Part shown: positions 161 through 50,693 of the stretch, piece after piece
How the letters are laid out: every line of letters starts with the position of its first letter
Numbering within the stretch: position 1 is the first letter of the stretch
Assembly (NCBI GenBank): GCA_964434585.1
Contig: CAYSVN010000001.1
Span: 1-57,078, forward strand
Length of the DNA stretch: 57,078 bases
Direction: 5' to 3'
From: an uncultured Candidatus Peribacteria bacterium
GTDB taxonomy: Bacteria > Patescibacteriota > Gracilibacteria > Peribacterales > Peribacteraceae
Position numbers and translations under genes: made by a program
The notes under the pieces: model-generated
Told to the model about the DNA's origin: nothing
Seen by the model: the letters and a program-made list of their open reading frames with translations, nothing else
The model's database searches: none

Positions 161-344
161 TTATGTACCGCATACGAAACAGCATGTTTGAACGAGTATT
201 ATGAGCCTATGATTGATTTCTACTAGGTGGCTGTTAGACAGGTAAAACCTGCAAATAAAACCCTACATCAATCTAAGGAAATCATGAATAGATGCTCATA
301 AACGAAGTGAGCTCTGTTTCGTGATTTTTTTGGTTCGTTTTTGT

Positions 345-366
345 ACCCGCCTACCGGCAGGCAGGT
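345..366. repeat. GC-rich palindrome ACCCGCCTACCGGCAGGCAGGT, an imperfect copy of the one at 33641-33662
   Basis: Direct comparison with the perfect 22-nt palindrome ACCTGCCTGCCGGCAGGCAGGT. Confidence 0.6.
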
Positions 367-390
367 CGACAAAAATGAACATTAATACCT

Positions 391-1020: not shown

Positions 1021-1065
1021 AAACTCATCCTAGCATTTTTTTAGTAAACAGCCTACAGTGGTTAA

Positions 1066-1641: not shown

Positions 1642-1724
1642 ATGTATAGTTAAACGGAGTAGTACTTAGATTGTTACATTACGGCTAATTTGTTATTCTA
1701 GTAACCTATTTACCTTATTTAATT

Positions 1725-3617: not shown

Positions 3618-3662
3618 TTTTTTGTTTAAGAACAATCATAAGAGTGATATAATGGTTGTATT

Positions 3663-4349
3663 ATGAACATTAAACAATTAACTATTATTACATCTACCAT
3701 TCTATTAGTAGGATGCTCTTCCACTACAAAACCTACACGTAGTTTCCTGCCACCAGTAGAACAGGAGCCAAAGGAAGGAATCGTTACGAAAGATGAACTA
3801 ATGGATAACGTTGAACTTAGCATGACTGAAGATGAAGGGGATGAGGATTCGGATTTTGTTATTGAATTTGAAATAGAAGATGATCTTGGTAATAAAGATG
3901 AATTTAATATGGATCTTAGCGATGTGTTTAATAAAGATACTACCATAGATTGGACTTTGTTAACTGAAAATGCTGAACAGGAAGATTATATACTAACAGT
4001 GACTGATGTTGATGGAGGTAAAACATTTGTGCAGACAATCTCTTACGACTCAGAAAGTGGCAAAAAAAATATTGAAGGATTAGGCATACAGTACCAATCA
4101 TTATTAGATGTTCTTTCAGATCTTGAGATGTTTGATTATGGTCTTGAATTTGAAGGGCCAATCAATACTGAATGTGCAAAAAGCAGTTGTCAAAAATATA
4201 TTGCTAACACGGGTTCACAGGATTATGAGATCTTTTTTGATGACAAAGGCAGGCTAGTTGCTTATAATTTTGAGTTAGAAATAGGAAACTCTAGTAGTTT
4301 AAACTCAAGATTAGAGGTATTGGTTAGCTACACCTCGGTTAATTTATAG
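3663..4349 (+). CDS. Hypothetical lipoprotein, acidic
   Basis: Signal peptide with lipobox ILLVGCSS; no recognisable domain. Confidence 0.55.
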   Translation: MNIKQLTIITSTILLVGCSSTTKPTRSFLPPVEQEPKEGIVTKDELMDNVELSMTEDEGDEDSDFVIEFEIEDDLGNKDEFNMDLSDVFNKDTTIDWTLLTENAEQEDYILTVTDVDGGKTFVQTISYDSESGKKNIEGLGIQYQSLLDVLSDLEMFDYGLEFEGPINTECAKSSCQKYIANTGSQDYEIFFDDKGRLVAYNFELEIGNSSSLNSRLEVLVSYTSVNL

Positions 4350-4355
4350 AGCTTT

Positions 4356-4802
4356 CTACTTAAACAATTTCCCTAGCTCCTCTTTAAACTCATCAACATC
4401 TTTAAATTCCCGGTGAATAGATGCATAACGAATGTAGGCTACTTGGTCAATTTTCTTAAGCTCTTTCATAACATCATTACCAATAGTGGTGCTAGAAATT
4501 TCTTTTTTATTACCACCCCATTTTTTTTCTAATTTATTAAGCATGCTTTCAATTTGTTTTTGAGAAATAGGCCTTTTAGCAGAACTAAGCCAAATACCTT
4601 TCTCGAGCTTCGTACGACTATAAGGCTCACGAACACCGTCACGTTTTACAACAATAAGGTACGAAACCTCTTGGCGTTCGAATGTCGTAAAGCGATGATG
4701 GCATTTTGAACACTCACGACGACGCCTGATTGCTAAATTACTTTCAGCATCACGGCTATCGACAACCGATGTATCATCATGTTTACAGCGAGGACATTGC
4801 AT
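4356..4802 (-). CDS. nrdR: Transcriptional repressor NrdR
   Basis: MQCPRCKHDDTSVVDSRD...RRRRECSKCHHRFTTFE zinc ribbon followed by an ATP-cone. Confidence 0.95.
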   Translation of the reverse strand: MQCPRCKHDDTSVVDSRDAESNLAIRRRRECSKCHHRFTTFERQEVSYLIVVKRDGVREPYSRTKLEKGIWLSSAKRPISQKQIESMLNKLEKKWGGNKKEISSTTIGNDVMKELKKIDQVAYIRYASIHREFKDVDEFKEELGKLFK

Positions 4803-4859
4803 GGGGGTAGTTTAGAGGATTTTTATGAAAATAGGAATATTGGATTAATGTATTTAATA

Positions 4860-4956
4860 TTGCAGGGGTTTAAAATGTGTCAGAAGTGTAAGAAGGGCTA
4901 AAGTTTAAAAGTTTATTAAACCGAGAAACCTTTTACACCTCTGCAACTTCTGCAAC
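4860..4956. repeat. R1: palindromic GTTGCAGAGGT-word element
   Basis: Left arm TTGCAGGGGT..GTCAGAAGT..GTAAGAAGG; right arm CCTTTTACACCTCTGCAACTTCTGCAAC. Lies in the nrdR/aspS divergent spacer. Confidence 0.7.
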
Positions 4957-5013
4957 TTTTTATTCCTTATTTTTCTAGCACTAGGCCCAATTTTCCTCTA
5001 AAATCCATCTACT

Positions 5014-6777
5014 ATGCTACGAACCAATACTTGCGGAGAACTCCGCGCAGAAAACTCAGGCTCAACTGTAACCTTAAGTGGTTGGGTGCACCGTCGCCGC
5101 GACCACGGTGGGCTTATTTTTATAGACCTGCGTGACCGCTACGGTTTTACGCAGGTGGTTATTGAGCCAGAAAATAAAGAAGTCTTTGCTTTAGCAGAGC
5201 GCATTCGTAGTGAATGGGTGCTACAGATAGAAGGTGAAGTTCGTGGGCGTTTAGAAGGCGCAGAGCGCGATGATAACCCAACTGGAGCTATTGAGGTGGT
5301 GGTAAAAACTATTAACGTATTAAACGAAGCTAAAACTCCTCCGTTTGAAATTGACCAAGAGAAAGGGGTAAACGAAGAGCTGCGCCTTAAGCACCGTTAC
5401 TTAGACTTACGTCGTGAGCGCATGCAAAAGAACCTTAAAGTTCGCTACGATGTTATTAGAAACATTCGTGATTTTTTCCATAAGCAAGAATTTATGGAAA
5501 TTGAAACACCAATTATGATTAAAGGAACACCAGAAGGTTCACGTGAATATCTTGTACCTTCGCGTATGTATCCTGGAACATTTTACGTGTTGCCACAAAG
5601 CCCTCAGCAGTTAAAACAAATGTTAATGGTAGGTGGCTTAGACCGATACTTCCAGATTGCTCGCTGTTTCCGTGATGAAGACTTACGTGGCGACCGTCAG
5701 CCAGAATTTACGCAGCTTGATATGGAAATGTCTTTTGTAGATCAAGAAGATGTGTTAACACTGGTGGAAAATTGTCTAACAGAAGTAGTGGAAACACAAC
5801 GTCCTGATAAAAAAATTCAACAAAAACCATTTCCTCGTATGTCATATGAGCATGCGATGCATACCTACGGTTCTGATAAGCCTGACCTTCGTTTTGGTCT
5901 TGAATTTACAGATGTAACAGAAATTTGTAAAACATGTGGATTTACCGTATTTGAATCGCTTGCAACCATGGAAGATGGCTTTGTAAAAGCTATGAAAGTA
6001 CCAAATGCAGATAAATTTAGCCGTAAAGATATTGACGACCTAACAAAGCTTGCTCAAAACCATGGCGCTAAAGGTCTTGCTTGGGTGCGCGTTGGTGAAG
6101 ATAGTGGTCCAGTTGTTAAAAATACTTCTACAGAATTTCAGGCAGCATTGCTAACAGAAACAGATGCAGCTGCTGGAGATCTTATTTTCTTTGCAGCAGG
6201 TGAATACCCATTCGCTTTTGAACCACTTGGTGAAGTGCGTAAGGCAGTTGCAGAAAAATTAGATATGATCGATACGTCTGTGTGGAGCTTGCTTTGGGTT
6301 ACAGACTTCCCAATGTTTGAAAAAGATCCTGAAACAGGAGTAGTAGCTTCGGTGCATCATCCATTTACGCGTCCAAATCCAGAAGATATGGATAAGCTTT
6401 CTACGGCTCCCACAAAAGCACGCTCTATTGCCTACGACCCAGTGATGGATGGATACGAACTCGGCAGTGGTTCAATCCGTATTCATGAACCAGATCTTCA
6501 AACAAAGATTTTTGAAGTAATGAATATTGGTAAAGAAGAACAAGAAATGAAATTTGGCCACATGTTAAAAGCCTTTGAATATGGAGCTCCGCCGCATGGT
6601 GGAATTGCACTAGGTATTGATAGAATAGTAATGCTCCTTTGTGACGAGCCAAATATTCGTGAAGTTATTGCATTCCCTAAAGACCAAAAAGCGAAAGACG
6701 TTATGCTTGGTGCTCCAGCACCAATGCCAGATAAGCAGGTAGAGGAACTTGGTATTAAGGTTATTCGTGAAGACTAG
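5014..6777 (+). CDS. aspS: Aspartate--tRNA ligase, bacterial type
   Basis: [42 protein letters not shown] and [12 protein letters not shown] class II motifs. Confidence 0.95.
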
Positions 6778-6825
6778 CGGTATAACTAGTCATGGCTCGT
6801 CTTCGCTCACCATGACAACACAGTG

Positions 6826-7206
6826 TCACCCTGAGCGAAGACGAAGGGTTGCACTGTGTTGAATAAACATGTGTAGCCTTTTACGAAGGTGATGAGAATC
6901 ATTTTGACATTGTGATAAAATATTAAGCTTATCACTATCATTTTTTATAAGAGCTTTCTTCTTTCTTCGACTCCATTTTTTAATACGTTTTTCCCAATCG
7001 ATAGCATCAAGTACGTATTGAAACGCAGCGGTATACACTAATTGTATTGGTCGTTTCTTAAATGTATAACAAGTAGTATAAAAGCCAAATTGATGTTGCC
7101 ATAATCGCTTTGGTAAATCACTTGTTATGCCAATATAAAAAGAATCATCAACACACTTTAACATATAGACAGTATATTCTTTTTGCATAGGTGAACGATT
7201 ATACAC
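6826..7206 (-). CDS. GIY-YIG nuclease domain protein (small, stand-alone)
   Basis: YTVYMLKCVDDSFYIGITSDLPKRLWQH. The C-terminal tail is encoded by the CCCTGAGC..CGAAGGG mini-palindrome at 6827-6850. Confidence 0.8.
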   Translation of the reverse strand: MYNRSPMQKEYTVYMLKCVDDSFYIGITSDLPKRLWQHQFGFYTTCYTFKKRPIQLVYTAAFQYVLDAIDWEKRIKKWSRRKKKALIKNDSDKLNILSQCQNDSHHLRKRLHMFIQHSATLRLRSG

Positions 7207-7231
7207 CTATGATATGTTTAAATCAAGAAAT

Positions 7232-7981
7232 CTAGTCTAACAATTCAGCAGTCTTTCCGGTTTCTGGAATAATACTTTCAGTAATAATACCATTTTGCTC
7301 AGTAACCTTATAGCAATGGGCAGTGTTTTTACTCGTAATAACGTTATAGATGTCATCTTGCCAAACAATAGCTGCACATTCATCAACGCCAATGCCAACA
7401 CCTTTGTGTAGTTTTATAAATTCATAAAAACTTTCTCTACGAGGCTTGCCGTCAGTAGCGCTATCGTAATGAGGGCAATGAATAGCGGGAATAAAATTAA
7501 GTCCTGTTACGCGTATGTAATCCCAGTTATCTGCGGCGTCAAAGCTTGCGCTATCACTATGGCCAGATTCGTACCAACAAATAGAGCCAGCAGAAAGTCC
7601 ACACAAAACTTTGCCACTGTTACGAGCCTTTGTAAGTAAGGAATCAACACCACGCTCTTTCCAAAGCTGCATCATCATTTTTGTATTACCTCCACCAACA
7701 TAAATAATATCGGCCTGCTTAATTTTTTGCTGTATTCCTTCGTCAGTAATTACATTATCTAGCAATGGTAAAATGTCAACAGTACACCCTAGTAAGTCAC
7801 CATAGTATCCTTTAAACACATTAATATATCCTTCACTGTCGCTACTAGCAGTTGGAACAAACAGTACATTAGGGTTCGTTTTTTTAGAAAGCTTTATAAT
7901 AGCTTCATCAATAGACTGCGTTTCAATGGCTGTGCCTGGACGACCCATTTCTCCGCCACCAATAGTTACAATAGTACTCAT
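7232..7981 (-). CDS. Peptidase S51 (dipeptidase E / cyanophycinase-like)
   Basis: IYVGGGNTKMMMQLW and VLCGLSAGSICW, the nucleophile-Ser context typical of S51. Confidence 0.75.
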   Translation of the reverse strand: MSTIVTIGGGEMGRPGTAIETQSIDEAIIKLSKKTNPNVLFVPTASSDSEGYINVFKGYYGDLLGCTVDILPLLDNVITDEGIQQKIKQADIIYVGGGNTKMMMQLWKERGVDSLLTKARNSGKVLCGLSAGSICWYESGHSDSASFDAADNWDYIRVTGLNFIPAIHCPHYDSATDGKPRRESFYEFIKLHKGVGIGVDECAAIVWQDDIYNVITSKNTAHCYKVTEQNGIITESIIPETGKTAELLD

Positions 7982-7996
7982 AAAAACATTGTACCA

Positions 7997-8428
7997 TTAA
8001 TTCCAAGTATCAAAATCTTTAATCATTTGGGTTCGTTTTTCGTTACCGTCATATAAATTGTTAAACCAAGATTCTAAAATTTCTACTGGATCTTCTGTTA
8101 TCCAAGAGCTTAAACATAATACATTTGCATTATCATACACCTTTGCGAATTCAGCTTGTTTTGGTAACGTGCAAAGCGTTGCACGAATTCCCTTAAAACG
8201 ATTAGCACCAATTTCTACACCAGCACCAGTTCCACAAACTAAAATGCCAGAATCGTTTTCATTTCTTTGAATCGGTATCGTTACAGCAGGAATAATTTCT
8301 TGCAAACTTATTTTTACGTTAGAGTCCATTGTTCCAACATTTTTAAATTCAATACTATTAAGCGTTAAATAGTTCTCAATTTTTGTTAGTAAATCGACAG
8401 TGTGATGATCTCCAGCAATATTAATCAT
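7997..8428 (-). CDS. rpiB: Ribose-5-phosphate isomerase B (RpiB/LacA/LacB family)
   Basis: ILVCGTGAGVEIGANRFKGIRATLC; ~143 aa. Confidence 0.85.
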   Translation of the reverse strand: MINIAGDHHTVDLLTKIENYLTLNSIEFKNVGTMDSNVKISLQEIIPAVTIPIQRNENDSGILVCGTGAGVEIGANRFKGIRATLCTLPKQAEFAKVYDNANVLCLSSWITEDPVEILESWFNNLYDGNEKRTQMIKDFDTWN

Positions 8429-8449
8429 AATCTAAATAAATAATAGAAT

Positions 8450-9166
8450 CTACCAACCTTTTACTTCCATGCCATTTACGGCAGCATCTAATTCTGCCTT
8501 TTGTTTAGAGGCACCAGAGCCTTCCGCAATGCGCTGCTCTTCAATAAATAATGCGCATACAAATGTTTTATTATGGTCGGGTCCAGACTCACTAACCATT
8601 TCGTAGTGTGGAGTAATGTTTAATAATTCTTGTGATTTTTCTTGAAAACGGGACTTCGCATCACGGTCTTTACCAGCAGCAAGTAATGTTTGCAGGTCTA
8701 CTAAAATAAATTTTGTAATAAAGCTTTGTGCAGCATCGTAACCACGGTCTAGGTGTATAGCACCAATTAGCGCCTCTAACGCATTGGCTAGGGTGCTTTC
8801 TTTACTTCGGCCACCACTAGCTTCTTCGCCTTTACTCATGAACAAATAGTCACCCAAATTAATAGTAGTTGCTACCTTGGCTAGGTTTTCGCCACGCACT
8901 AATGCTGCGCGCCAGTTTGTTAACTCTCCTTCATTTTTATCACGAAACGAAAACAAATACTCCGTTACAATTAGTTCTAACACAGCGTCTCCTAAAAATT
9001 CTAGGCGCTCATTGTGGCCATTAACATGTTGTTGTTTACTAGCACTACGGTGGGTAAGTGATTCTGCAAGCATGTCTTTGTTTCTAAAAACAATACCAAT
9101 GGTTTTTTCTAACTGGGTAAAGGCAGCTGGCATATTACTTGGGGCAAATTTCTTGGGTAATAGCAT
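8450..9166 (-). CDS. rnc: Ribonuclease III
   Basis: NERLEFLGDAVLELIVTEYLF signature plus a C-terminal dsRBD. Confidence 0.95.
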   Translation of the reverse strand: MLLPKKFAPSNMPAAFTQLEKTIGIVFRNKDMLAESLTHRSASKQQHVNGHNERLEFLGDAVLELIVTEYLFSFRDKNEGELTNWRAALVRGENLAKVATTINLGDYLFMSKGEEASGGRSKESTLANALEALIGAIHLDRGYDAAQSFITKFILVDLQTLLAAGKDRDAKSRFQEKSQELLNITPHYEMVSESGPDHNKTFVCALFIEEQRIAEGSGASKQKAELDAAVNGMEVKGW

Positions 9167-9551
9167 TCAGCACTCCATGCACAAATTTACGACCTTCATC
9201 CGTGCTAAATTCCTTACAAAGTTCTACTGCTTCATTAATAATAATAGCGGGGGCTAATCCAGTTTCTTTGCTCATGGTTAACTCTGTTGCACCAATAAGC
9301 ATAATGGTTAGTGATACTTGATCAATCTCTTTTAACTCCCATTGTGGAGTGTGTTTATCAATTAATGTTTCACATGTTTCGCGGTGTGTAAAACAGTTAT
9401 CAAGTAACTGTGTTGCAAATGGTTGATCTGCGCCTTCATTTAAGCTGAAGGTAAGTTGTAAGGCTGACTGGAGTGCGGGTAGTTTTTGTTCTTTACGAGC
9501 ATACAATGCTTGTAGAACCGCAATCCGGGCAGCATGACGGTGTCGTGCCAT
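9135..9551 (-). CDS. nusB: Transcription antitermination factor NusB
   Basis: ARIAVLQALYA N-terminus, ~138 aa, overlaps the rnc start (operon). Confidence 0.85.
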   Translation of the reverse strand: MARHRHAARIAVLQALYARKEQKLPALQSALQLTFSLNEGADQPFATQLLDNCFTHRETCETLIDKHTPQWELKEIDQVSLTIMLIGATELTMSKETGLAPAIIINEAVELCKEFSTDEGRKFVHGVLNAITQEICPK

Positions 9552-9623
9552 AAAAAGGTCGGGAGGGGATTGTTTATATATTATAACTGATTAGAAGATT
9601 TAATACTACACATACAGTTAAAT

Positions 9624-9729
9624 GTTGCAGGTGTTGCAAAGGCGTCAGAGGTTAAAGAAGGAGTAAGTTTACTTACATCTTAAATAGCAAAACCTCTGAT
9701 ACGCCTGCAACATCTGTAACCTCTGCAAC
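9624..9729. repeat. R2: palindromic GTTGCAGAGGT-word element
   Basis: GTTGCAGGTGTTGCAAAGGCGTCAGAGGTT ... AACCTCTGATACGCCTGCAACATCTGTAACCTCTGCAAC. Lies in the nusB/lepB divergent spacer. Confidence 0.75.
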
Positions 9730-9783
9730 ATTGAACAGTCTTTCTCATGTGACTTTTTCCTTACTTTCCAGTAAAATGCCTCT

Positions 9784-10410
9784 ATGGAAAAAAAGAAAAA
9801 AAACTCTTGGTGGCTCGATATATTAGATATTGGTTTAAACGTTATTATCATCGTGGGTATTGTCGTAGCTATCCGTACATTCTTAGTATCACCATTCCAG
9901 GTTGATGGTCCAAGCATGAATAACACATTGGAAGACAATCAATACATTATCATCAATAAGTTAGCATATTATATTGGTAGTCCAAAACGTGGTGATGTTG
10001 TGGTATTTAAGGCAAAGCAAACAAATGAAAAATACTATGTTAAACGTGTGCTTGGCGTTGGTGGTGACGAGGTAATTTTGCGCGGAGGCGACGTATTTAT
10101 TAAAACACCAGATAGTGAGTTTGAAGTAAAAATTGAAGAAGCATACTTAGCAGAAGACAATCTTGGTCGTACGTATCAGAGGCACCCTAATAGTGGAAAC
10201 ACTACCGAAAAACGTTACCAGGTACCAAGTGATCAATATTTTTTGATGGGAGATAATCGTCAAGGAAGTCTAGATTCACGCAGTTTTAAAGATGAAAATG
10301 GAGCAGAAGTACCGTTTATTGCTGAAAATGATATTAAGGGGCGTGTATGGTTTGTAGCGTTGCCAGTTACAAAAATTCATGCTCTGTCTCCACCAGAATA
10401 TAATTTATAA
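9784..10410 (+). CDS. lepB: Signal peptidase I
   Basis: VDGPSMNNTL (catalytic Ser), YVKRVLGVGGDEV (Lys box), GDNRQGSLDSR. Confidence 0.9.
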   Translation: MEKKKKNSWWLDILDIGLNVIIIVGIVVAIRTFLVSPFQVDGPSMNNTLEDNQYIIINKLAYYIGSPKRGDVVVFKAKQTNEKYYVKRVLGVGGDEVILRGGDVFIKTPDSEFEVKIEEAYLAEDNLGRTYQRHPNSGNTTEKRYQVPSDQYFLMGDNRQGSLDSRSFKDENGAEVPFIAENDIKGRVWFVALPVTKIHALSPPEYNL

Positions 10411-13453: not shown

Positions 13454-14383
13454 ATGAAAAAATTAGCATCATTACTATTATTAATTATAATACCAGCTGC
13501 CGCTTTGGCTGCTTTTCCTGATGTACCAGAGCAGTCACAGTACTTTGACGCTGTGGAGTACGCAAAACTTAATGGTATTGTAAATGGATATGATGATGGA
13601 ACGTACCGACCAAATGTAACAATTAACCGAGCGGAGTTTGTTAAAATATTAGTAGAATCTAACTTTACTGTAGCCGATGTAGAAAGCTGTACTGTGGATT
13701 CTATGGCGTACAGCGACGTGCCAAGTGCAGCTTGGTATGTGCCATATGTTTGTGTGGCAACAGAAGAAGGTATTATTAAAGGTTATGAAGATGGAACATT
13801 TAGGGCCGCTAATACTATTAATTTTGTAGAGGCTGCTAAAATTATTATTGCTACTGAAAATGGCGGAGAGATTGCTGGGGATCCTTGGTACCAGCCATAC
13901 GTTATTTCACTGAGTGAACGTAATGCTATTCCAACAGCTATAACAACATTAGATCATAATGTTACCAGGGGAGAAATGGCCGAAATGATGTATAGAACAT
14001 TGCAGTCTATTACAGATAAGCCTTCAACGACATATAACACATTGGCAGGCATTGAGGAGCAATCTGCAATATTAACGCCTGTAGATGGCAGTAATTCAAC
14101 AGGAGTAGCAAATGCTACGTGGGATGGTACAGAATATAAAGTGGTTGCAACATTTAGTAATCTTCCAGAAGCATTACCAGGCTTCTTTTATGAAGGCTGG
14201 GTTGTGCGCCCAGGTGCTAACCTGAGTATTATATCCACAGGTGTAGCTGACGGCATAACCGGTAATATATTTACGAGTAATCAAAATTTAATAGACCATA
14301 CTAGGTATGTGTTAACATTAGAGCCAGACGATGGAGATCCGGCACCAGCTCCAGAACATACTGTAGAAGGAGACTTTAATTAG
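13454..14383 (+). CDS. Secreted S-layer homology (SLH) domain protein
   Basis: Signal peptide LLLIIIPAAALAA; SLH-like repeats FPDVPEQSQYFDAVEYAKLNGIVNGYDDGTYRPNVTINRAEFVKIL and YSDVPSAAWYVPYVCVATEEGIIKGYEDGTFR. Confidence 0.75.
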   Translation: MKKLASLLLLIIIPAAALAAFPDVPEQSQYFDAVEYAKLNGIVNGYDDGTYRPNVTINRAEFVKILVESNFTVADVESCTVDSMAYSDVPSAAWYVPYVCVATEEGIIKGYEDGTFRAANTINFVEAAKIIIATENGGEIAGDPWYQPYVISLSERNAIPTAITTLDHNVTRGEMAEMMYRTLQSITDKPSTTYNTLAGIEEQSAILTPVDGSNSTGVANATWDGTEYKVVATFSNLPEALPGFFYEGWVVRPGANLSIISTGVADGITGNIFTSNQNLIDHTRYVLTLEPDDGDPAPAPEHTVEGDFN

Positions 14384-15969: not shown

Positions 15970-16158
15970 CAGTAATTAAACTGTGAAAGCCAAATGGAAT
16001 ACATTGGAGAAATAAGAAAAACCACTGAGATGAAAAAAGAGAAAATTGGAGATTAATCCAGTTGTCAAAAATAAGGATATTATCTGAAGAATAATTTCAC
16101 TCACTGTGATTAATTAGTGGTCAGTTAAAATAAGTAAGTTTACTATAGGGTTCATTAA

Positions 16159-16311
16159 TTCTCGCACTATCGAGAGGAGCTCTTGTGGCTTCCAAGGGAG
16201 TGAACGGCCATCCGCCGAACGCGATAGTTGACACGACTTGGAATAAGCCACTAAGTAAGCAGCGCAGTGCGAAACTTTTTTGTTACTTTTTTGGTTACAA
16301 AAAAGTAGGGA
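16159..16311 (-). repeat. Copy B of the structured dispersed element
   Basis: The reverse complement aligns over its whole length with copies A, C and D. It ends 20 nt upstream of the ligA start. Confidence 0.75.
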
Positions 16312-16321
16312 AAGAATGTAA

Positions 16322-18529
<2,208 letters not shown>

Positions 18530-18592
18530 TATTTTAAAATATTTAACTGTTCTTTTTTTATTTTTACCATTTACCATCAATAAGGAGAAACA

Positions 18593-18811
18593 ATGGTAGC
18601 GGTAATATTGTTGTGGCTATTCGCGCCTTCGTTTCATAAATACTACGTGTTTACACATAGAGTTTATGAACGATTTATGCGAAGTCATATGGACCCATTA
18701 GATGAGCAATATCACTTAAAAAGACGTAGGTTCTGGCAAAGAGTCGAACTTACAGCTCTAAGTGCCGTGATAGAAGCTTCAACATGGTGTTGTATTTTTT
18801 TACTCCAATAG
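18593..18811 (+). CDS. Small membrane protein (module 1), paralog of 19024-19344
   Basis: Strong SD AAGGAG at 18582-18587; N- and C-terminal hydrophobic segments around a basic RRRF core. Confidence 0.45.
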   Translation: MVAVILLWLFAPSFHKYYVFTHRVYERFMRSHMDPLDEQYHLKRRRFWQRVELTALSAVIEASTWCCIFLLQ

Positions 18812-19023
18812 AAAGGATAGCGTAAAGTTCTTGGTTGGCATCTTAATGAAAGGATCCAACTAATAGTCAGCATTCATTGCTGACACTAGCGGCATCGCAA
18901 GATGCCGAACAAGCCCAATGCAATGTTGCACCGGGCTTTTAATTTGACAAATAATTATTAATAGTTCAAAATATAATTCGTTCTTTTTTCATATTTCATA
19001 CCTCCCAAATTTTAAGGATAAAC

Positions 19024-19344
19024 ATGGGACCTGCTCTTTCCATATTTATGAAGGGATTGATGTTTATTGCTATCTTTCCTTTCACAATCTTTATTGTCTG
19101 CCGAATGCGCCATAGCTTACTTGGCTACCTTTGGTGGCATAGTGAGAACTATGACAAGTTTAGACAAAAAAGAGACTACGAAGGTAGTGAAGACGCAATG
19201 ACCTTCAGGACCAGGAAACGCCGCTTTAAAAAACGTGCGTTGGCAATATCTGCCATTGCTACTCTAGAAGTAGCATTATTCCTCATCTACAAATCTCCGT
19301 GGATCATCCATCATTTTGGGTGGTTATTTATCCCAGAAGGATAA
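19024..19344 (+). CDS. Small membrane protein (module 2)
   Basis: SD AAGGA at 19014-19018; same TM-basic(RKRRFKKR)-TM layout as 18593-18811. Confidence 0.45.
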   Translation: MGPALSIFMKGLMFIAIFPFTIFIVCRMRHSLLGYLWWHSENYDKFRQKRDYEGSEDAMTFRTRKRRFKKRALAISAIATLEVALFLIYKSPWIIHHFGWLFIPEG

Positions 19345-19441
19345 AGAACATGGCTTAACTTTAACGTTGAGCACCACGGCAACCATTGCGTTGCCGAAAT
19401 AACCCAACGCCACTTCGGCTGAGGGTTTTTTATTTGGTGTA

Positions 19442-19469
19442 TTGACAAAAACAATAAAATATGTAACAT
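19442..19469 (+). promoter_or_regulatory. Sigma70-like promoter of module 3
   Basis: TTGACA - 16 nt - TAACAT. Confidence 0.45.
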
Positions 19470-19522
19470 AGGATAGTTAGCAATCCTGCTAACAAGTTCT
19501 TTTCTACTACGGAAGGTATAGC

Positions 19523-19699
19523 ATGGAAGTTATCTTTATGCGGATCGAAGTGGAAACATTAAGCAGGCAACAAGTTCTTTGTTGCGTACTTGAGGAGGTT
19601 CTACTCCGGCTCTGTAAAACTACACATTTAACCGTAACTCAGCACGAGTACGGAGAACCAAAGCCAAATTTGGGACAAGTTCTAGATGTTTTAGTTTAA
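19523..19699 (+). CDS. Possible 58-aa ORF (below the track cutoff)
   Basis: Manual translation MEVIFMRIEVETLSRQQVLCCVLEEVLLRLCKTTHLTVTQHEYGEPKPNLGQVLDVLV; GGAAGG lies 6 nt upstream. Could instead be an untranslated leader. Confidence 0.2.
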   Translation: MEVIFMRIEVETLSRQQVLCCVLEEVLLRLCKTTHLTVTQHEYGEPKPNLGQVLDVLV

Positions 19700-19722
19700 T
19701 TATTTTCACACGGAGGTGAAAC

Positions 19723-19914
19723 ATGTCGACAGGAAATTTTGTGGAAGACATTCTAATAGTCTGTGTTCCGTACATCATCCCTGTTATGTCTATCGGCTTC
19801 GCTCTGTTCTGCAGACGCAAAACCGAAGGCATTGGTGCTCTCATTTTTGCTAGCAGCTTGCTAGTAGTAGGGGCACTTATTGTTGGAACGGTTGTCTGCG
19901 ATTTTATCTCGTAG
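19723..19914 (+). CDS. Small two-TM membrane protein (module 3)
   Basis: SD GGAGGTG at 19712-19718; hydrophobic ILIVCVPYIIPVMSIGFALF and ALIFASSLLVVGALIVGTVV. Confidence 0.45.
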   Translation: MSTGNFVEDILIVCVPYIIPVMSIGFALFCRRKTEGIGALIFASSLLVVGALIVGTVVCDFIS

Positions 19915-19985: not shown

Positions 19986-20020
19986 GCGTAAAAAACCGGT
20001 TTACTGTATAATAAAAACAT

Positions 20021-20431
20021 ATGGATACCACACTTTACTTAACCACGGCCGAACAAGAATTACTAAATAATATTGATGTAACGTTAACAGAAAACTTCTC
20101 TGTAGAAGCAGAAACATTCGGTAAGTATGAAACTATAAAACAGCTGCAAATGCGCCATTTTTTAGCAGACTTTACTGCTTATCCAGAAATTAATACACTT
20201 ATTGAAAAATTAAAAAGTAACCCTACTGACATTACAAAAGAAGACTTAGAAACCATGAACCCTGAGTTCCAAGAAGAGGTTTACTTTGCAATTGGAGCAA
20301 GAGGGGTTGATGTATTTGTGCAAGAACTTATAAAAAATATCTCTGATGAAGATGATATGGAAGCTCTTTGTTTTTTGACAACTGTTCGCCATAAATTACT
20401 CGATATTAACTCAAAATCTAAACATGTTTGA
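20021..20431 (+). CDS. Hypothetical acidic protein; first gene of the giant-protein operon
   Basis: TGTATAAT 8 nt upstream of the ATG; its stop overlaps the next start by 8 nt. Confidence 0.55.
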   Translation: MDTTLYLTTAEQELLNNIDVTLTENFSVEAETFGKYETIKQLQMRHFLADFTAYPEINTLIEKLKSNPTDITKEDLETMNPEFQEEVYFAIGARGVDVFVQELIKNISDEDDMEALCFLTTVRHKLLDINSKSKHV

Positions 20432-21068
20432 TACTGAAAACCTATCTTCGGCAGAAATAAAACGCCTTCAAGAGGCTAGCGAGGTTTATAGAAGTCTTGA
20501 TAGCCGTGAACGTGAAATTCTTGATGCAATTGACAATAGCGTTACCCAGCGCGAGGAATTAGCAGTAAATCTTAAAGACAGACTTAATGGTGAATACCAT
20601 GATGAATTAATTGATCATTTAGCGATGATTCATGAGCAAAAAGAAGCTAAAAAGGAATATACTTCTTGGGGTTATGTTAAAGAAAAAGCAGGCCAAGCTG
20701 CTAAGTGGGCCTGGAAGCATAAATGGTGGATTGCCGGCTTAACAACTGCTGCCATTTTTGGTTATGGTTATTATAGATATGGTGATTTAATGGGAGGAAT
20801 TCAAGTTATGAAAAATATCGGCGGCGGTATTGCAAACATGTATGGCGCCGCAACCGAAAAAATTGGTGGTTTCCTTGGCGGCCTTAAAGAGCGCCTTGGT
20901 GGCCTTTGGGGAGGCGCTGAAGAAATTGCGCAAAAATTACCAGGAGTTCCTGAAATTCCAGGTGGAGTGCTTCCACCAGATGGAGTAATACCGGAAATTC
21001 CAAGTATTCCAGAAGTACCAGTCCCTACTGATGGACTTCCTAGCCTTGGAGACTTTGACGCAACTTAA
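20424..21068 (+). CDS. Hypothetical membrane protein with a Gly-rich and Pro-rich C-terminus
   Basis: Helical N-terminus, TM WWIAGLTTAAIFGYGYY, GG-repeats GGGIANMYGAATEKIGGFLGGLKERLGGLWGG, then PEIP repeats. Confidence 0.55.
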   Translation: MFDTENLSSAEIKRLQEASEVYRSLDSREREILDAIDNSVTQREELAVNLKDRLNGEYHDELIDHLAMIHEQKEAKKEYTSWGYVKEKAGQAAKWAWKHKWWIAGLTTAAIFGYGYYRYGDLMGGIQVMKNIGGGIANMYGAATEKIGGFLGGLKERLGGLWGGAEEIAQKLPGVPEIPGGVLPPDGVIPEIPSIPEVPVPTDGLPSLGDFDAT

Positions 21069-21098
21069 AATCGTTTTTAACACATACAAACTAACATT

Positions 21099-24000
21099 AT
21101 GGCCGATTCGGGAGAAATACCTCAGGACTACGATAGTCTAGAGCGAAAACAACCAACAGCTCCGGTAGTACAACCAGCAGGTGAGGCCGAGCTTCCTCAG
21201 CATGGTGATCTGCTAAGGCAATTGCAGCAAACAATTGAAGCAAAAAATGTTAAGCTTATTGACAAAGAATTATTTGAAGCCTTAGCTTTGTTGGCTGCCT
21301 ATAAAGAAGATTGGAAAGAAGTTGAAGAGCTTCTTAGAATTGATAATTTTCCATCACCTACAAACGAAGGGCGCAAGCAACCAAATTTTACAGTTGATAA
21401 TCGATCGCTTGTAGAATTACACAAAAAATTGCAGCAATTTTTACGCCTTGCACGCTACAAGCACTTAGGTCGTGATGTTGGGCCTGCCTATAACAAAAGA
21501 ACGTTAACCCAAATTCAGAACACAACACTTAAACGAGTTGCGCAATTTTTAGAAGCTAGAAATACATACGTAGAAAAATACTGTAATGCAGATGTATACA
21601 TTTTCAATGAGATGTTAAAAGGGTATTTAGATAATGAGGTTATTCAAAAAAATGCAAATGAAGAATTAAAGAAATTTTTAGTAACAAACTACACACTTGC
21701 ACAGGAGTTAGGTTTGCCTGATATACCGTCTAAATATATTAATGAAGATGTATTACAGCGAATAACAGAAAGAGATGTTCGTGTTATGAAAATTATAGAA
21801 AATTGCATGAGAATAGATAAGAATAAAGAAGGTGAAATTGAAGCTTTTGAAGTAGATAAAAATAAAATAAAACAGTATCTTGAGTCGTTACAACTTGAAG
21901 CTGACCAGCAACAAATTGATGCGTTGTTTTTTATTGTTAAGGTTTTAATTGATGAGGAGAATCATGAGCAGCTTTACCAGGTTTCAGACAGTCTACGTAT
22001 ACCATTTGAAGATATAACCATTACTCAAGCTGCACCTTATTTAAATGAAAAAATGGAAATACTTGATGAACATTTAGGTGGTGCGTTTGAGAAGATTCGT
22101 GGAGCGGTTTCGAAACCAGTACTTAAACGCTACATGGAAGATGGTATTTCATTGCCAAAACTACCAAAGCTTTCAGAATCATTTAAAAAACTTAAGTTCG
22201 AAAACTTGCCAGCAGATGTAAAACTAGAACTAACCAAAGACATAAGAGCAGCTCTAGAAAACAAGCTTAACGATAACATTCCAGATGGGTTTAATACAAT
22301 TGATGATGATAAGTTAGTTGCAGAGATTGGTAATGTTCTCAGCTATATGAAAGGAAATAATACAACATTACTTAGTACGACAGATAGAACTGTTGGAGAA
22401 GAGGAAAACAAGCGTACATTAGAAGGAAAACCAAGTAGTTTTTCTGCGCGTGAGTATTCGATTATGCAAGCTCTTAAAGAATATATTTCTTCGGAAGTTT
22501 CTAGTGAGGCAGTTATTAATTCACTCCTTATTTATAATCGAGACGAGACGGTGCAGAAAAAAATGGTAGAGACCATTACTGATATGCTTACAGATTCATC
22601 TGACTCTCTTTCGCATGATGAAGCATTACAACTTCTTTTCCGTTTAAAATTGTCAGAGAGAGGAACAGGAAAGCCTCAAAGTAGTCCACTTCTTTTAATG
22701 GAAGGTTTACGACTATTACAAAGTCAAGACAGTGTCCTTGTGGACGACCGTAAACAGGGGCAAATTACTATCCAGGCAGCTGGCGAAATTCATATTGCTC
22801 ATGAATTTATGATGATGATTGCAAGAACGGCAGCCTCTGGTAAATTAGAAATCCCCGATGGTATTGAGGTGAGCGATGAAATGATGGACTTCTTAACATA
22901 CCAGGTAGGCCTTGGTGTAGAGCAATACAAAGAAGAGGAAACCACATTATTAGAAACCATAAAAAAATATAAATTACCTATTGCACTTTTTGTTCTTATA
23001 GCTGGTGGAATTGTTTTGTTTAGACCTGGAAAACGAGCAACGGAATTTGCAATTCAGGTAAATCGGGCTAAAATGCAAAACTTTACCCGAGGGACGTTAG
23101 CAGAATTTAAAAAAGCATACCCTAAATTGGCGCAACAGTTTTCTGATGACGAGATAAAAGCTACCAGAAGAATTGCCCGTGAAGTACTGCATGACTATAA
23201 CCAGCTTGAAACTCTAAATTTTCAAAGAAGAGGGGCATTGATTCGTACATTTAACCGTATAAAACAACAACAGGCGTTTGACATGGTAGAGCTGGTAAAA
23301 ACGCTAAAAAATATTAGAAATCCGCGTAGTATTATTGAAAAAATGGCAAACAAAGCCTTTTTGATTACAGATTCTGACCCCGCTTTAGTTGCTAGACTAG
23401 TGAATAAAACAGTAGGCTCACGAGAAGAGCTTACAAGTATTATGAAGCAAGCAGGGTATGCTGATGAAGTTATTAAAGATGCTATTCATGAGCTTGGCGC
23501 AACGAACATTTCTCATTTTGAAAGGCAGGAAAAATTATTTGCAGAAGCCGAAGAATTAATGAAAAGAACTACTAATGTAAGCACTTTAGATGATGCTACG
23601 AGAGCTGCAGAGATCGAAAGTTTAAAGGCTGATTTTAAAAAGCTTTCTACCAATCTAGAGAATGCGGCTGCAGAGATAAATCCTGCGTTTAAAGAGAAGT
23701 TTATTAAGCATCTACAACAAGAGTATCCTCACTTACCTCAGGGGAGCATGTCATCAGTTGATGAAGTTGTTGAGGGAGCGATTAGTGCCGCTCCTCGAAT
23801 TACCCATATTGAACAATTATCTAATATAGATGCTTTTAAAAATCGCCTTACATATATCTTGGAGGAGCTTGATGAAATTAACGCTATGAAAACTGGGAAA
23901 ATTGCACGCCTAAGAGAGTTTAATAAAAATACTGTGCGACCTTTTATGAAAGAACTTGCTGTATTTGAAGTAGACCATCCAACTGTACGTCGAACACTAG

Positions 24001-25712
24001 CAAATCAAATTATGGGAGACGTTATAACAGATGCGGATTGGGATATTATTAAATCCGCCCATGCAGAAACAGACATTGTAAAGAAGTCTGCAAAACTAAA
24101 AGCTCTTGAGCACTCAGTTGCAGATTTACCGCTTAAAGATGAAGCGCGTATTACGAAGCGCAATAATATTAGAAAATTAATGCGCACAGGGATAACAGGG
24201 GAAGTTGCGTTAGATGCTATGATACAACCCAGTACCGTCGATGAGCTTGCAGATGTTCTTAAAGGTTTAAGCCCAAAACATTGGGCACCAAAAATTACTA
24301 CTTACCTTAAGCGTTATCCTGGTCAATTAAATAGTGTTGGCAACATGCTTGATGATACTAGCGTCGTTACTGCAGCTAAACAGGCCGATGGAGTGGCTGA
24401 GTTATCAAGAATCCGATCTGCAGCTGTGCAAACATCACAACTACTAAGGAGAGGGTTTGGTCATGCAATTACAAAAGGTCTCCCTGTCGCCGGGTTTATA
24501 CTTGAAGCTTTTTTAATTCGTAGTACATATAATCAATTGCAAGCCGCAGAGAAACAAGGTGATGGAGCACAAATAGAACTTTTAAAAAGCAAACTTGATA
24601 CTGATGTGCAGGCATTTTCAAGCGAGGTAGTTCTGAGTGGATTTATGTATAGAGCTTCTCAATTAGGACAGCTTGGAGTAAAAACAACAATAGTCGGTGC
24701 TCTAGCTTTAACGGCTGGTCATTTAACAAAAGATGCTCTTTATACTTACGCAGATGAGATAAATAATATGACATATGACCGCTATCGTTCAGAGCGACCA
24801 GACCAAAACCTTCAAACAATAAAAGGTGCTACATTTGCAGCGCTCGTTGACCCAGAAGGTGTACAAAAATATGCCGAGTCAGCTGCTCTAGATGCTTACA
24901 TCGAAAATCTAAACTTAGCGCAGCTCAATGAATTAGACATGCTCTATGGAAGGGAAACATTGGCCTTTAAATTAGCAAAAAGTGAGCATAAATCATACGA
25001 AGAAATATTGAATAGTCAAAACTTACCAAGAGTACTTAAAGAAGAAAAAGAAAGCTTTATAAAAAGAGCAATTGCTGAATTCGTGCAATATAGTGAAGGG
25101 AAAGATCTAGAATGGGGAGAGCGCCTTGAGCAAGCAGTGGCTTACGCAGAACTTAAGCACAAGGAACGTCGTTTAAAATCATTATATGGAGAGAAGGCCT
25201 GGCAGCAGTCTATTGATGGCATGCCTACGCTTCAGGGGGGATTAGATCAATACCCAGTAAAAACAATGACTCCTGACGAAGTATTAACCAATGGTGGTTA
25301 TAACACTCAACTACTTGAGGCTTATAAATATGATCAGGCGGTACAATGGCTTACGGAATTTGAACTTGAAGTTGCAAATTTAAAGACAATTGATAATCAA
25401 CAAGACAGAAGCTTTGCAGAAATAGGTGTCAAAGCGAGGCTATTTACACTGTTCGCTAATGTATTTTTTATACATGATTATCATGTATACCTTTCCAAGG
25501 CACCCAATGGAGAACGTCATATTTATAAGCAAGCAAGCTTTGGACCAGAAGCACATAGGCAATTTGAATCTTTTCTTAAAGAATTAAGTGGTAAAGAACA
25601 TATCGCAAATCGTGTTAAGGCTGTATTAAATTTACAAAATTCTCTGCGAGAAGCCTTTAATCCTGGCAACATAATACTACAAAAAGGTAAAAGTAATTAT
25701 TTTGGAGACTAA
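21099..25712 (+). CDS. Giant (1537 aa) orphan protein, predominantly helical, with about three hydrophobic segments
   Basis: Uninterrupted 4.6-kb ORF; hydrophobic PIALFVLIAGGIVLF, GLPVAGFILEAFLI and TTIVGALALTAGHL; no catalytic motif recognised. Confidence 0.7.
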   Translation: MADSGEIPQDYDSLERKQPTAPVVQPAGEAELPQHGDLLRQLQQTIEAKNVKLIDKELFEALALLAAYKEDWKEVEELLRIDNFPSPTNEGRKQPNFTVDNRSLVELHKKLQQFLRLARYKHLGRDVGPAYNKRTLTQIQNTTLKRVAQFLEARNTYVEKYCNADVYIFNEMLKGYLDNEVIQKNANEELKKFLVTNYTLAQELGLPDIPSKYINEDVLQRITERDVRVMKIIENCMRIDKNKEGEIEAFEVDKNKIKQYLESLQLEADQQQIDALFFIVKVLIDEENHEQLYQVSDSLRIPFEDITITQAAPYLNEKMEILDEHLGGAFEKIRGAVSKPVLKRYMEDGISLPKLPKLSESFKKLKFENLPADVKLELTKDIRAALENKLNDNIPDGFNTIDDDKLVAEIGNVLSYMKGNNTTLLSTTDRTVGEEENKRTLEGKPSSFSAREYSIMQALKEYISSEVSSEAVINSLLIYNRDETVQKKMVETITDMLTDSSDSLSHDEALQLLFRLKLSERGTGKPQSSPLLLMEGLRLLQSQDSVLVDDRKQGQITIQAAGEIHIAHEFMMMIARTAASGKLEIPDGIEVSDEMMDFLTYQVGLGVEQYKEEETTLLETIKKYKLPIALFVLIAGGIVLFRPGKRATEFAIQVNRAKMQNFTRGTLAEFKKAYPKLAQQFSDDEIKATRRIAREVLHDYNQLETLNFQRRGALIRTFNRIKQQQAFDMVELVKTLKNIRNPRSIIEKMANKAFLITDSDPALVARLVNKTVGSREELTSIMKQAGYADEVIKDAIHELGATNISHFERQEKLFAEAEELMKRTTNVSTLDDATRAAEIESLKADFKKLSTNLENAAAEINPAFKEKFIKHLQQEYPHLPQGSMSSVDEVVEGAISAAPRITHIEQLSNIDAFKNRLTYILEELDEINAMKTGKIARLREFNKNTVRPFMKELAVFEVDHPTVRRTLANQIMGDVITDADWDIIKSAHAETDIVKKSAKLKALEHSVADLPLKDEARITKRNNIRKLMRTGITGEVALDAMIQPSTVDELADVLKGLSPKHWAPKITTYLKRYPGQLNSVGNMLDDTSVVTAAKQADGVAELSRIRSAAVQTSQLLRRGFGHAITKGLPVAGFILEAFLIRSTYNQLQAAEKQGDGAQIELLKSKLDTDVQAFSSEVVLSGFMYRASQLGQLGVKTTIVGALALTAGHLTKDALYTYADEINNMTYDRYRSERPDQNLQTIKGATFAALVDPEGVQKYAESAALDAYIENLNLAQLNELDMLYGRETLAFKLAKSEHKSYEEILNSQNLPRVLKEEKESFIKRAIAEFVQYSEGKDLEWGERLEQAVAYAELKHKERRLKSLYGEKAWQQSIDGMPTLQGGLDQYPVKTMTPDEVLTNGGYNTQLLEAYKYDQAVQWLTEFELEVANLKTIDNQQDRSFAEIGVKARLFTLFANVFFIHDYHVYLSKAPNGERHIYKQASFGPEAHRQFESFLKELSGKEHIANRVKAVLNLQNSLREAFNPGNIILQKGKSNYFGD

Positions 25713-25782
25713 GAATCTTTGTAAATATTTCAGAAATAGTTTTTCTTGAACACATTTTAGCGACGTAACCACAAATTTAACG

Positions 25783-25811
25783 TTGACTGGCTATGCAAGT
25801 ATCTTTAAAGT
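25783..25811 (+). promoter_or_regulatory. Candidate sigma70 promoter of the r-protein operon
   Basis: TTGACT - 17 nt - TAAAGT, about 80 nt upstream of rplC. Confidence 0.4.
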
Positions 25812-25890
25812 ACCTCCACTTTGAATGATTTTGAGCGAATAAAACCGTACTCCTTATCACTCATTTGTCTCTACTTATTGCCCCTTTCCG

Positions 25891-34326: not shown

Positions 34327-34341
34327 TTTGATAGTATTTTC

Positions 34342-34495
34342 TCTCTACTTTTTTGTAACCAAAAAAGTAACAAAAAAGTTTCGCGCTAGACGTTCGGTCG
34401 TAAGTAACTTATTGCAAGTCATTCACTGTCCTTCTTCGGCGGACGGTCGTTCATTCCTTTGCAAGTTACTAGTACGCCCTCTCGGGAGCGCGAGA
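34342..34495 (+). repeat. Copy C of the structured dispersed element
   Basis: TCTCTACTTTTTTGTAACC...AAAAAAGTTTCGCGCT...GTAACTTATTGCAAG...CTTCGGCGGA...TTTGCAAGTTAC...GAGCGCGAGAG. Confidence 0.75.
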
Positions 34496-36311: not shown

Positions 36312-36356
36312 TTAAAAGTATTGTAGTTTGTTCTAAGTATAAAATACAGTATTCCA

Positions 36357-36524
36357 TCGCGCTCCCGAGAAGGCGTATTGTGGCTTCCAAGGTAGTGAAC
36401 GGCCATCCGCCGAACGCGATAGTTGACGCGACTTGGAGTAAGCCACTTACGACTGAACGTCTAGCGCGAAACTTTTTTGTGTACCCCTGAGCTTGCCGAT
36501 GGGTTGGTTACAAAAAAGTAGAGA
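36357..36524 (-). repeat. Copy D of the structured dispersed element, inverted relative to copy C
   Basis: The reverse complement aligns with A, B and C. It carries the same 22-nt insert (AACCC.TCGGCAAGCTCAGGGG) as copy A. Confidence 0.75.
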
Positions 36525-48888: not shown

Positions 48889-48984
48889 CCTTTAAATACA
48901 AAAACAGTAACACTTCACATATCACAGTTTTATGCTCTGGATAATATTTAAAGATAGCTATGTATGGTATAATAGTTAGATTTT

Positions 48985-50628: not shown

Positions 50629-50693
50629 AACACAATAAACATACAATGGAAACTAGTTAATATTGTTAAAAAATGGTACAATGGTTAGATCTT

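Follow-up and report, generated by a model that had tools for sequence, protein, structure and literature searches.

We analyzed a 57,078-nt stretch of DNA from an uncultured Candidatus Peribacteria bacterium (contig CAYSVN010000001.1; hereafter the window) and found that three adjacent genes at positions 20021-25712, which we named A, B and C, form a predicted operon encoding three apparently new protein families. The operon appears to be new as well, although the novelty of its parts does not show that its mechanism is new. Gene C encodes a giant protein of 1537 amino acids (aa) that the original prediction, made from the letters of this DNA, had described as an orphan. That description did not hold: C has 11 relatives, and at least four or five further lineages encode homologues of A and B, likewise ordered. 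We tentatively interpret the triad as a membrane-anchored cytoplasmic scaffold linked via B to the wall or surface-layer (S-layer) zone, a reading that we hold with low confidence. The supposed singleton has thereby become a three-family system with alignments, motifs (including a hairpin that carries E1136), a likely ancestral address and partial models. The operon and the signals in front of it are as follows:

20021-20431, forward strand: gene A, encoding an acidic protein of 136 aa with an isoelectric point of 4.4
20424-21068, forward strand: gene B, encoding a predicted single-pass membrane protein of 214 aa; its first 8 nt are shared with gene A
21099-25712, forward strand: gene C, encoding a predicted all-alpha giant protein of 1537 aa
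19943-19985, forward strand: terminator-like hairpin followed by U8 (RNA fold -14.7 kcal/mol, z -2.1)
20005-20012, forward strand: extended -10 element TGTATAAT, 8 nt 5' of the gene A ATG; leaderless-type start

The layout of the three open reading frames (ORFs) was as originally predicted, including the coordinates, the 8-nt overlap between A and B (ATGTTTGA), the spacer of 30 nt between B and C, and the position of TGTATAAT. Across loci, A and B were separated by -8 to +9 nt, and B and C by a spacer of 6-37 nt; the spacer was A/C-rich and without a Shine-Dalgarno sequence, in the window as elsewhere. An extended -10 box was present 7-8 nt 5' of the gene A ATG in all five loci compared (the window, L084, L086, L087 and L091). 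The box read TGTATAAT in the window, TGGTATACT in three of the other loci and TGGTAGAAT in the fourth, and in these four its distance to the ATG was 7 nt. Because the junctions are tight or overlapping and the -10 box 5' of gene A is conserved, a single leaderless-type transcript is supported, in keeping with the earlier proposal of one transcript. The hairpin and U8 tract just upstream probably close a preceding unit of small ORFs and set the 5' boundary of the operon; no comparable terminator was found 3' of gene C. In the window, a -10 box at 6-9 nt 5' of the start and the lack of a Shine-Dalgarno sequence are shared by most first genes, and the leaderless-type start of gene A is thus usual for this genome and not particular to the triad operon. 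A, B and C appear to constitute one tightly coupled, chromosomal, leaderless-type operon with predicted translational coupling.

The reading frames themselves are secure. TAA, TAG and TGA are all used as stops in the window (35, 14 and 7 times, respectively), so the ORF calls made with the standard code are sound. The triad lies in DNA of 38% GC and has the GC content of the rest of the window. Three further public data sets had each yielded an independent assembly of the locus, 99.8-100% identical to this one. Strain single-nucleotide polymorphisms (SNPs) in the triad numbered three, two synonymous and one non-synonymous, which is too few to show selection.

For the relatives of C, we relied on an exhaustive search. 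When 5.8 billion proteins were searched by word index, C matched only itself, B matched nothing, and the family profile retrieved only its query. By contrast, an exhaustive HMMER pass found the family where these searches had reported no homologue: phmmer with C aa 338-1537 against 1.84 billion cluster representatives yielded 11 relatives, with E values of 5e-239 to 1e-12. These relatives rest on one non-iterated pass, and the alignments of the families are shallow, with 5-12 sequences. The closest relative, P0008, has 1418 aa and is 47% identical to C; several others are 24-31% identical and 1345-1444 aa long, one has 1926 aa, and some are fragments. In all-against-all BLAST comparisons read transitively, homology between members was near full-length, as between P0010 aa 131-1387 and P0014 aa 80-1339. 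Since an open frame of 1537 codons at 38% GC cannot be due to chance and full-length homologues exist, ORF C is real, and C evidently belongs to a rare but real family. The window protein has the features that define the family, namely the domain with RRxLA, WxxIxxAH and RxGIxGE, the hairpin with its carboxylate, and the domain with ALDAY, YAELKHxERR and FG.

The order A-B-C recurred in other genomes. The lack of synteny that would have refuted the original prediction was therefore not observed, and the shared order strengthens the case for a real system. The proteins encoded by the triad measured 133, 196 and 1418 aa in L084; 136, 212 and 1389 aa in L086; 134, 263 and 1393 aa in L087-L089; and 135, 215 and 1345 aa in L091/L092. 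Full triads including that of the window thus span 133-136, 196-263 and 1345-1537 aa with their order kept. In the partial locus L090, a B homologue ends 35 nt 5' of the giant gene, leaving a B-C pair. The GC content of triad loci ranged from 41 to 56%, so several distinct lineages carry the triad, roughly six uncultured, Peregrinibacteria-like bacteria that are only distantly related.

More distant relatives of C had a different make-up. The giant proteins of L093 (P0015) and L094 (P0018) have different N-terminal halves that contain coil, transmembrane and Gly-rich or acidic modules resembling B. Their genes are preceded by genes for proteins of 101 aa and 109 aa, which are related to each other (E 2e-4) and unrelated to A. 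P0015 and P0018 may represent a fused variant of the system. However, comparison of their B-like module with B gave hhalign probabilities of at most 2.3%, which is not significant; we regard the fusion as a look-alike architecture and did not use it as evidence.

We next considered where the triad resides. In both L086 and L087, the order is rplS, a PS_pyruv_trans gene, the triad and lepA, and the partial flanking ORFs of L084 encode a pyruvyl transferase and a LepA-like GTPase. The giant gene is also followed by lepA in L095 and L096, making five loci in total; the flanks differ from these in the window, in L091 and in L094. In the window, the triad lies between ligA plus a set of small ORFs and rplC, not between a pyruvyl transferase gene and lepA; neither of those two genes is present in the 57 kb. 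Given the pyruvyl transferase/lepA flanks in three loci and lepA in five, the order pyruvyl transferase-triad-lepA is likely to be the ancestral site and the ligA/rplC position secondary.

The claim that rpsJ and tuf normally precede rplC was borne out. Relatives have the order rpsL-rpsG-fusA-tuf-rpsJ-rplC, and none of those upstream genes, rpsJ and tuf included, is present in the window. The system is not, however, characterized by a place next to rplC: none of 80 rplC loci from GTDB representatives contained a triad homologue (0/80), and the likely ancestral site is upstream of lepA. Even the closest genome by ribosomal protein L3, a Candidatus Peregrinibacteria metagenome-assembled genome (MAG; L001) at 65% identity, lacked the triad at this site; the next-best L3 matches, at 47-52%, came from MAGs of Peregrinibacteria, Peribacteria and Patescibacteria. 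In the region 25713-25890, where the ribosomal-protein cluster starts with rplC and without rpsJ or tuf, a promoter-like site (TTGACT-17-TAAAGT at 25783-25811) precedes rplC with a leader of about 80 nt, unlike the leaderless norm of the window. In another Patescibacteria MAG (L010, positions 139-9888), an ORF of 3249 aa stands directly 5' of rplC; its product is a surface protein made of beta-rich repeats and anchored in the membrane at its C terminus, and we discarded it as a relative of C because it is unrelated.

Against its neighbors, the triad diverges fast. Between L086 and L087, LepA is 69% identical, L19 66% and IF2 60%, whereas A and C are each 23% identical and B is barely alignable. 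The triad thus evolves about three times faster than its neighbors while gene order, protein sizes and motifs stay. The proposal of a lineage-restricted system kept in small genomes was supported. Small genomes of the candidate phyla radiation (CPR) maintain the ~5.7 kb and the architecture of this operon despite divergence to ~23% identity, which speaks for a function that is needed and specific to the lineage. Operons of conserved hypothetical genes are frequent across the CPR.

Searches against known families and folds gave little. Comparison of A, B and C with Pfam, NCBIfam, PHROGs, PADLOC and PDB sequences assigned no family; the best Pfam score, to Mac, was 17.8 bits and below the cut-off. 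When all members of the three families were compared with Pfam, NCBIfam and PHROGs, we obtained no meaningful match. A YoaH/UPF0181 match in two members (E ~1e-3) came from a short 'AGYSxEEV' helix-turn motif only and was set aside as uninformative. The 12-member C-family profile reached a best E value of 0.98 against PDB sequences, and the profiles of the A and B families retrieved nothing there. Foldseek with the C-terminal model of C found no PDB match at E <= 1e-3; its top PDB fold matches, with TM-scores of 0.1-0.15, were alpha-solenoids and arrays of helical bundles of a generic kind (nucleoporins, karyopherins, catenin/vinculin). None of the three proteins was placed in a characterized family by these searches. 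Neither pattern scans of JGI metagenome contigs and IMG/VR nor tblastn searches of 50,697 phage genomes and of 72,556 plasmids gave a match. No phage gene lies beside the triad in any locus, and eight loci have housekeeping flanks. With its chromosomal housekeeping context, a GC content like that of the genome and no phage or plasmid matches, the triad is not mobile DNA.

Protein A is predicted to be soluble and acidic, with no hydrophobic segment. Homologues encoded directly 5' of B in four other loci are 21-44% identical to it (E 1e-39 to 2e-3), and the alignment retains the motifs LYLTxxEQ, MRxxMADF, GARG and VRHxLL. A itself had no match in Pfam or PDB; a match to YedJ (E 0.066) was insignificant.

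The features of protein B are as follows:

20724-20783, forward strand: transmembrane segment of B, aa 101-120, WWIAGLTTAAIFGYGYYRYG, called from hydrophobicity; the ~100-aa part N-terminal to it is predicted to be cytoplasmic
20784-21065, forward strand: predicted extracytoplasmic tail of B, aa 121-214, with a Gly-rich block followed by Pro-rich acidic PEIP/PEVP repeats

The Gly block (GGGIANMYG / GGFLGG / GGLWGG), the PEIP repeats and the single transmembrane segment were all present in B as claimed, as were the three hydrophobic segments of C. The 94-aa tail of B contains 20 Gly and 11 Pro and has a net charge of -7. In three of the four other loci, B was recognizable as a relative of window B (E 5e-20 for L084, 1e-4 for L091 and 0.14-0.74 for L086); the L087 protein aligned with window B only via L084 (E 1e-3) and via the low-complexity tail. 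The five B proteins nevertheless share one architecture: they begin with ~100-150 helical residues, continue with a single hydrophobic helix and finish in a tail of low complexity to its end. The tails measure 72-94 aa and are Gly/Ala/Pro-rich and mostly acidic; their Pro content is not kept, with 2 Pro in L086. All five members have 4-6 Lys or Arg in the 15 aa before the transmembrane segment and 1-3 after it. By the positive-inside rule, this bias predicts a topology with the N terminus inside and the C terminus outside. None of the five B members matched Pfam, and B had a weak match to phrog_991, a tape-measure family (E 0.0039).

Protein C, which is predicted to be all-alpha, is divided as follows:

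21099-22973, forward strand: N-terminal region, aa 1-625, helical and poorly conserved after a disordered, Pro/Gln/Glu-rich start of ~40 aa
22974-23030, forward strand: segment H1, aa 626-644, LPIALFVLIAGGIVLFRPG, with a Kyte-Doolittle hydropathy (KD19) of 1.97
23811-24458, forward strand: conserved helical domain, aa ~905-1120, with motifs VRPFM, RRxLA, WxxIxxAH and RxGIxGE; AlphaFold2 (AF2) predicted local distance difference test (pLDDT) ~75-85
24462-24719, forward strand: predicted hairpin H2-loop-H3, aa 1122-1207, from alignment blocks and family hydrophobicity; AF2 confidence low to moderate
24831-25709, forward strand: C-terminal helical domain, aa ~1245-1537, with motifs ALDAY, LExAxxYAELKHxERR, HDxxxxLS and a terminal FG[DPS]

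A motif scan of C came out empty for Walker A, HExxH, CxxC, LPXTG, a lipobox, an N-terminal signal-like segment and internal repeats, consistent with the prediction that C lacks catalytic, repeat and secretion motifs. No signal peptide or secretion motif was found in A, B or C. C contains 2 Cys in its 1537 aa, and disordered Pro/Gln/Glu-rich N-termini like its own recur among its homologues. We modeled aa 645-1537 with AF2 from the family alignment and obtained an all-alpha model with a mean pLDDT of 64. Its confident blocks, ~aa 909-1119 and 1254-1524 (the latter with a pLDDT of ~85), form compact helical domains that flank the hairpin. The model of the N-terminal half, with a pLDDT of 47.9, was unusable, and we assigned it no fold.

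In the family alignment, the hairpin is the most conserved element of C. Its two helices correspond to the weaker hydrophobic segments at aa 1122-1140 and ~1177-1207. H2 is a hydrophobic helix with a central Glu or Asp (E1136 in the window) in ~10 of 11 members, the loop of ~35 aa is charged and has GD and SK motifs, and H3 is a Gly/Pro-rich hydrophobic helix with the pattern GxGGL...GPxGW...GGL. G1132, A1150 and G1190 are near-invariant. For H1, the equivalents in relatives are weakly hydrophobic and have more Lys and Arg downstream than upstream, so we doubt that it has a transmembrane role; as a true transmembrane helix with a 625-aa N-terminal domain outside, it is doubtful. A cytoplasmic C anchored by the hairpin would be the simpler reading. 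The idea of an HD domain, prompted by the conserved H988 and H1459-D1460, was dropped: the hairpin lies between these residues, which are ~470 aa apart, and the only related match, that of A to YedJ, is insignificant.

On this evidence, we suggest that the operon encodes subunits of a membrane-anchored structural complex in the bacterium's own envelope. A would be a soluble acidic cytoplasmic partner or chaperone. B would keep its ~100 helical residues in the cytoplasm, cross the membrane once and extend a flexible, Gly/Pro-rich acidic tail of ~90 aa into the wall or S-layer zone. C, with its bulk in the cytoplasm, would be held at the membrane by the hairpin at aa 1122-1207, and the weaker helix at 626-644 might give it a second hold. 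The complex would act as a scaffold that organizes the cytoplasmic membrane face or connects it with the wall, and would be neither an enzyme nor a secreted adhesin. We favor this because the proteins lack signal peptides and enzymatic motifs, B is predicted to be N-in/C-out, the flanks are housekeeping genes, and a CsaB-like pyruvyl transferase is encoded upstream in three lineages with S-layer homology (SLH) proteins nearby. SLH-domain proteins are encoded near the triad in the window and in L087, and CsaB-type pyruvylation of wall polymers anchors SLH proteins. The cell-envelope link suggested originally is therefore plausible, given the topology of B, its Gly/Ala/Pro-rich tail and the pyruvyl transferase neighbor in three lineages; the accompanying suggestion of host interaction is pure speculation.

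Several observations weigh against the scaffold. With KD19 values of 1.3-2.0, the hydrophobic segments of C are borderline, and H1 has its charge bias downstream, which makes membrane insertion insecure; the hairpin could be a buried core instead of a membrane anchor. The pyruvyl transferase neighbor is absent from the window and L091, and its adjacency elsewhere may simply reflect the conserved gene order rplS-pyr-triad-lepA. The 23% identity of the triad against 60-69% for LepA, IF2 and L19 is also a difficulty, as such fast divergence is expected more of proteins that are exposed or face a host, although helical scaffolds under low constraint show it too. In addition, the apparent B-like fusion in P0015 and P0018 lacks statistical support, and the remote-homology search was limited to one phmmer pass.

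Among known proteins, EzrA-type spectrin-like scaffolds resemble C in being all-alpha, non-enzymatic and membrane-tethered (as predicted for C), but the hydrophobic elements of C are internal and not N-terminal. B is partly reminiscent of TonB and TolA in that a predicted transmembrane helix is joined to a Pro/Gly/Ala-rich extended segment like their spacers, although the Pro content of this segment varies in the family; unlike them, B has no C-terminal globular domain, and its transmembrane helix comes after a predicted cytoplasmic domain of ~100 aa. No Pfam match to EzrA, TonB_C or TolA domains was found in the triad families. Large extracellular cysteine-rich proteins have been described in Peribacteria genomes (PMC4736985). 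They are comparable to C in size, in being lineage-specific to the same candidate phylum and in their proposed place at the cell surface (PMC4736985), whereas C has no signal peptide, contains 2 Cys and is helical instead of repeat- or beta-rich, which makes it a different kind of protein.

We weighed four other explanations. The main rival, which we still consider rather unlikely, is a host-directed export or translocator module: A, as a chaperone, would keep B, C or both soluble, and the latter two would leave the cell without a Sec signal and insert their helices into a partner cell's membrane. No secretion-system gene lies beside the triad in any of the eight informative loci, no match to a chaperone or translocator family was found for A, B or C in Pfam, NCBIfam or PDB profiles, the charge distribution of B suits ordinary insertion into the cell's own membrane, and known translocators are far smaller than C (1350-1540 aa). 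On the other side stand a gene order that starts with a small acidic protein and continues with soluble-looking helical proteins that lack a signal peptide and carry hydrophobic helices, a single one in B and an adjacent pair in C, the recurrent disordered Pro/Gln/Glu-rich N-termini of C homologues, and the very fast divergence of the triad relative to its neighbors; Peregrinibacteria are also considered probable symbionts with an investment in large surface proteins (PMC4736985). The chaperone-translocator operons of injection systems, such as ipgC-ipaB-ipaC and sycD-yopB-yopD, share with the triad a small acidic protein followed by helical proteins without Sec signals and with one or two adjacent hydrophobic helices. 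However, they have no sequence or profile similarity to the triad (A, B and C matched none of the SycD/IpgC TPR-type, IpaB/YopB and IpaC/YopD families), their one-helix and two-helix proteins come in the reverse order, C is 3-4 times larger, and no secretion apparatus genes were found in the flanks examined (57 kb of this genome). The likeness to chaperone-translocator operons is a lead only. C might also oligomerize through its hairpin into an ion-conducting, energy-coupling or pore-like assembly whose large helical domains serve as cytoplasmic regulator or stator. Buried carboxylates and Gly-rich helices are typical of ion-translocating membrane proteins, and the best-conserved hairpin, with Glu or Asp in the middle of H2 in ~10 of 11 members, a GD/SK loop and a Gly-rich H3, would suit such an assembly. 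Yet C has no homology to any ion-translocating family, AF2 is unconfident at the hairpin, hydrophobicity in the window is marginal (H2 KD 1.39; H3 < 1.2) and oligomerization of C is purely conjectural; we regard this reading as improbable. The same long-shot standing applies to a broader version, a CPR-branch-specific envelope machine in which C would oligomerize via the carboxylate hairpin into an ion-conducting or membrane-remodeling assembly and B would couple it to the wall or S-layer, for use at a host contact site.

Much less credible is a domesticated or remnant phage tail module, with C as tape-measure protein and A and B as tail-assembly chaperones. The resemblance to a phage tape-measure protein with gpG/gpGT chaperones lies in a very long helical protein with Gly-rich hydrophobic stretches that follows two small genes, here overlapping. 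The match of B to phrog_991 points the same way, as do tape-measure models among the top fold matches of C in BFVD (E 0.004-0.2), but TM-scores of 0.07-0.11 for the latter reflect generic long-helix likeness, and none of the 12 C-family members matched a PHROG at E <= 0.01 (0/12). There was no significant homology, and the triad was absent from the phage collections, both the 50,697 phage genomes and the IMG/VR pattern scans. No tail or other phage genes flank it, and its lepA synteny is kept on the chromosome. A has a stop codon and B has its own ATG in all loci, at a spacing of -8 to +9 nt, which is not a G/GT-type frameshift layout, although slippery heptamers were not specifically searched. 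The AF2 model of C, moreover, contains compact helical domains. We rejected the tape-measure reading on the generic fold likeness, the lack of PHROG and phage-genome matches, and the housekeeping synteny. Finally, the ORFs might be non-functional, either spurious or a decaying pseudogene, for which one could cite the missing annotation and family matches and the mere three strain SNPs. Uninterrupted ORFs of 1345-1537 aa at ~23% identity, with order, sizes and motifs kept, effectively refute this.

Upstream of the triad, the window contains four small ORFs at 18512-19914, encoding 72, 106, 58 and 63 aa; three of the products are predicted two-helix membrane proteins. TTGACA-type -35/-10 promoters precede the first three, the third of them standing before the 58-/63-aa pair, and hairpins lie in the intergenic regions. 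All four small ORFs have a strong AAGGAG/GGAGG Shine-Dalgarno sequence, whereas nearly all other genes in the window lack one and look leaderless. The three strain SNPs in these ORFs are all synonymous (3/3). Co-occurrence of this array with the triad, raised in the original prediction, was not observed: it had no counterpart at the other triad loci.

The adjacent ligA gene (16331-18529), for NAD-dependent DNA ligase, is one frame broken by an in-frame TAG at 17351-17353, at a position where we presume that LigA has Ala. The split into 340 and 378 aa was also called in the independent assembly L081. TAG serves as a normal stop in 14 other genes of the window, and no suppressor tRNA was found in the window. 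The ligA TAG may thus mark a pseudogene, a split enzyme or programmed readthrough.

We also noted repeated elements. Four copies of a ~100-nt intergenic element lie at 16150-16290 and 36345-36485 on the forward strand and at 1-142 and 34335-34477 on the reverse strand. The element has a long stem (GUGGCUUCCAAGG…CUUGGAAUAAGCCAC), four pairs of which are kept by compensatory changes, followed by a GCGAAAC-T6 tail; its loop region CCGCCGAA is invariant. It had no Rfam match and may represent either a small RNA not described so far or a repeat element. A separate repeat, 'GTTGCAGAGGT…', with units of 51 nt, has seven copies, at 4855, 9620, 16714, 40896, 40914, 42008 and 42017; the copy at 16714-16764 lies inside the ligA coding region and encodes an acidic insertion.

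The SLH-domain gene at 13454-14383 differs by a 20-nt indel at 14051-14070 from the otherwise 99.8% identical contig L081. With the 20 nt, it encodes a protein of 309 aa; without them, it is divided into 206 and 80 aa. The indel is strain-level frameshift variation in a surface-layer-type protein. At 48964-53152, the window contains tandem paralogous genes encoding ~545 aa each, with repeats of 106-287 nt at 60-80% identity.

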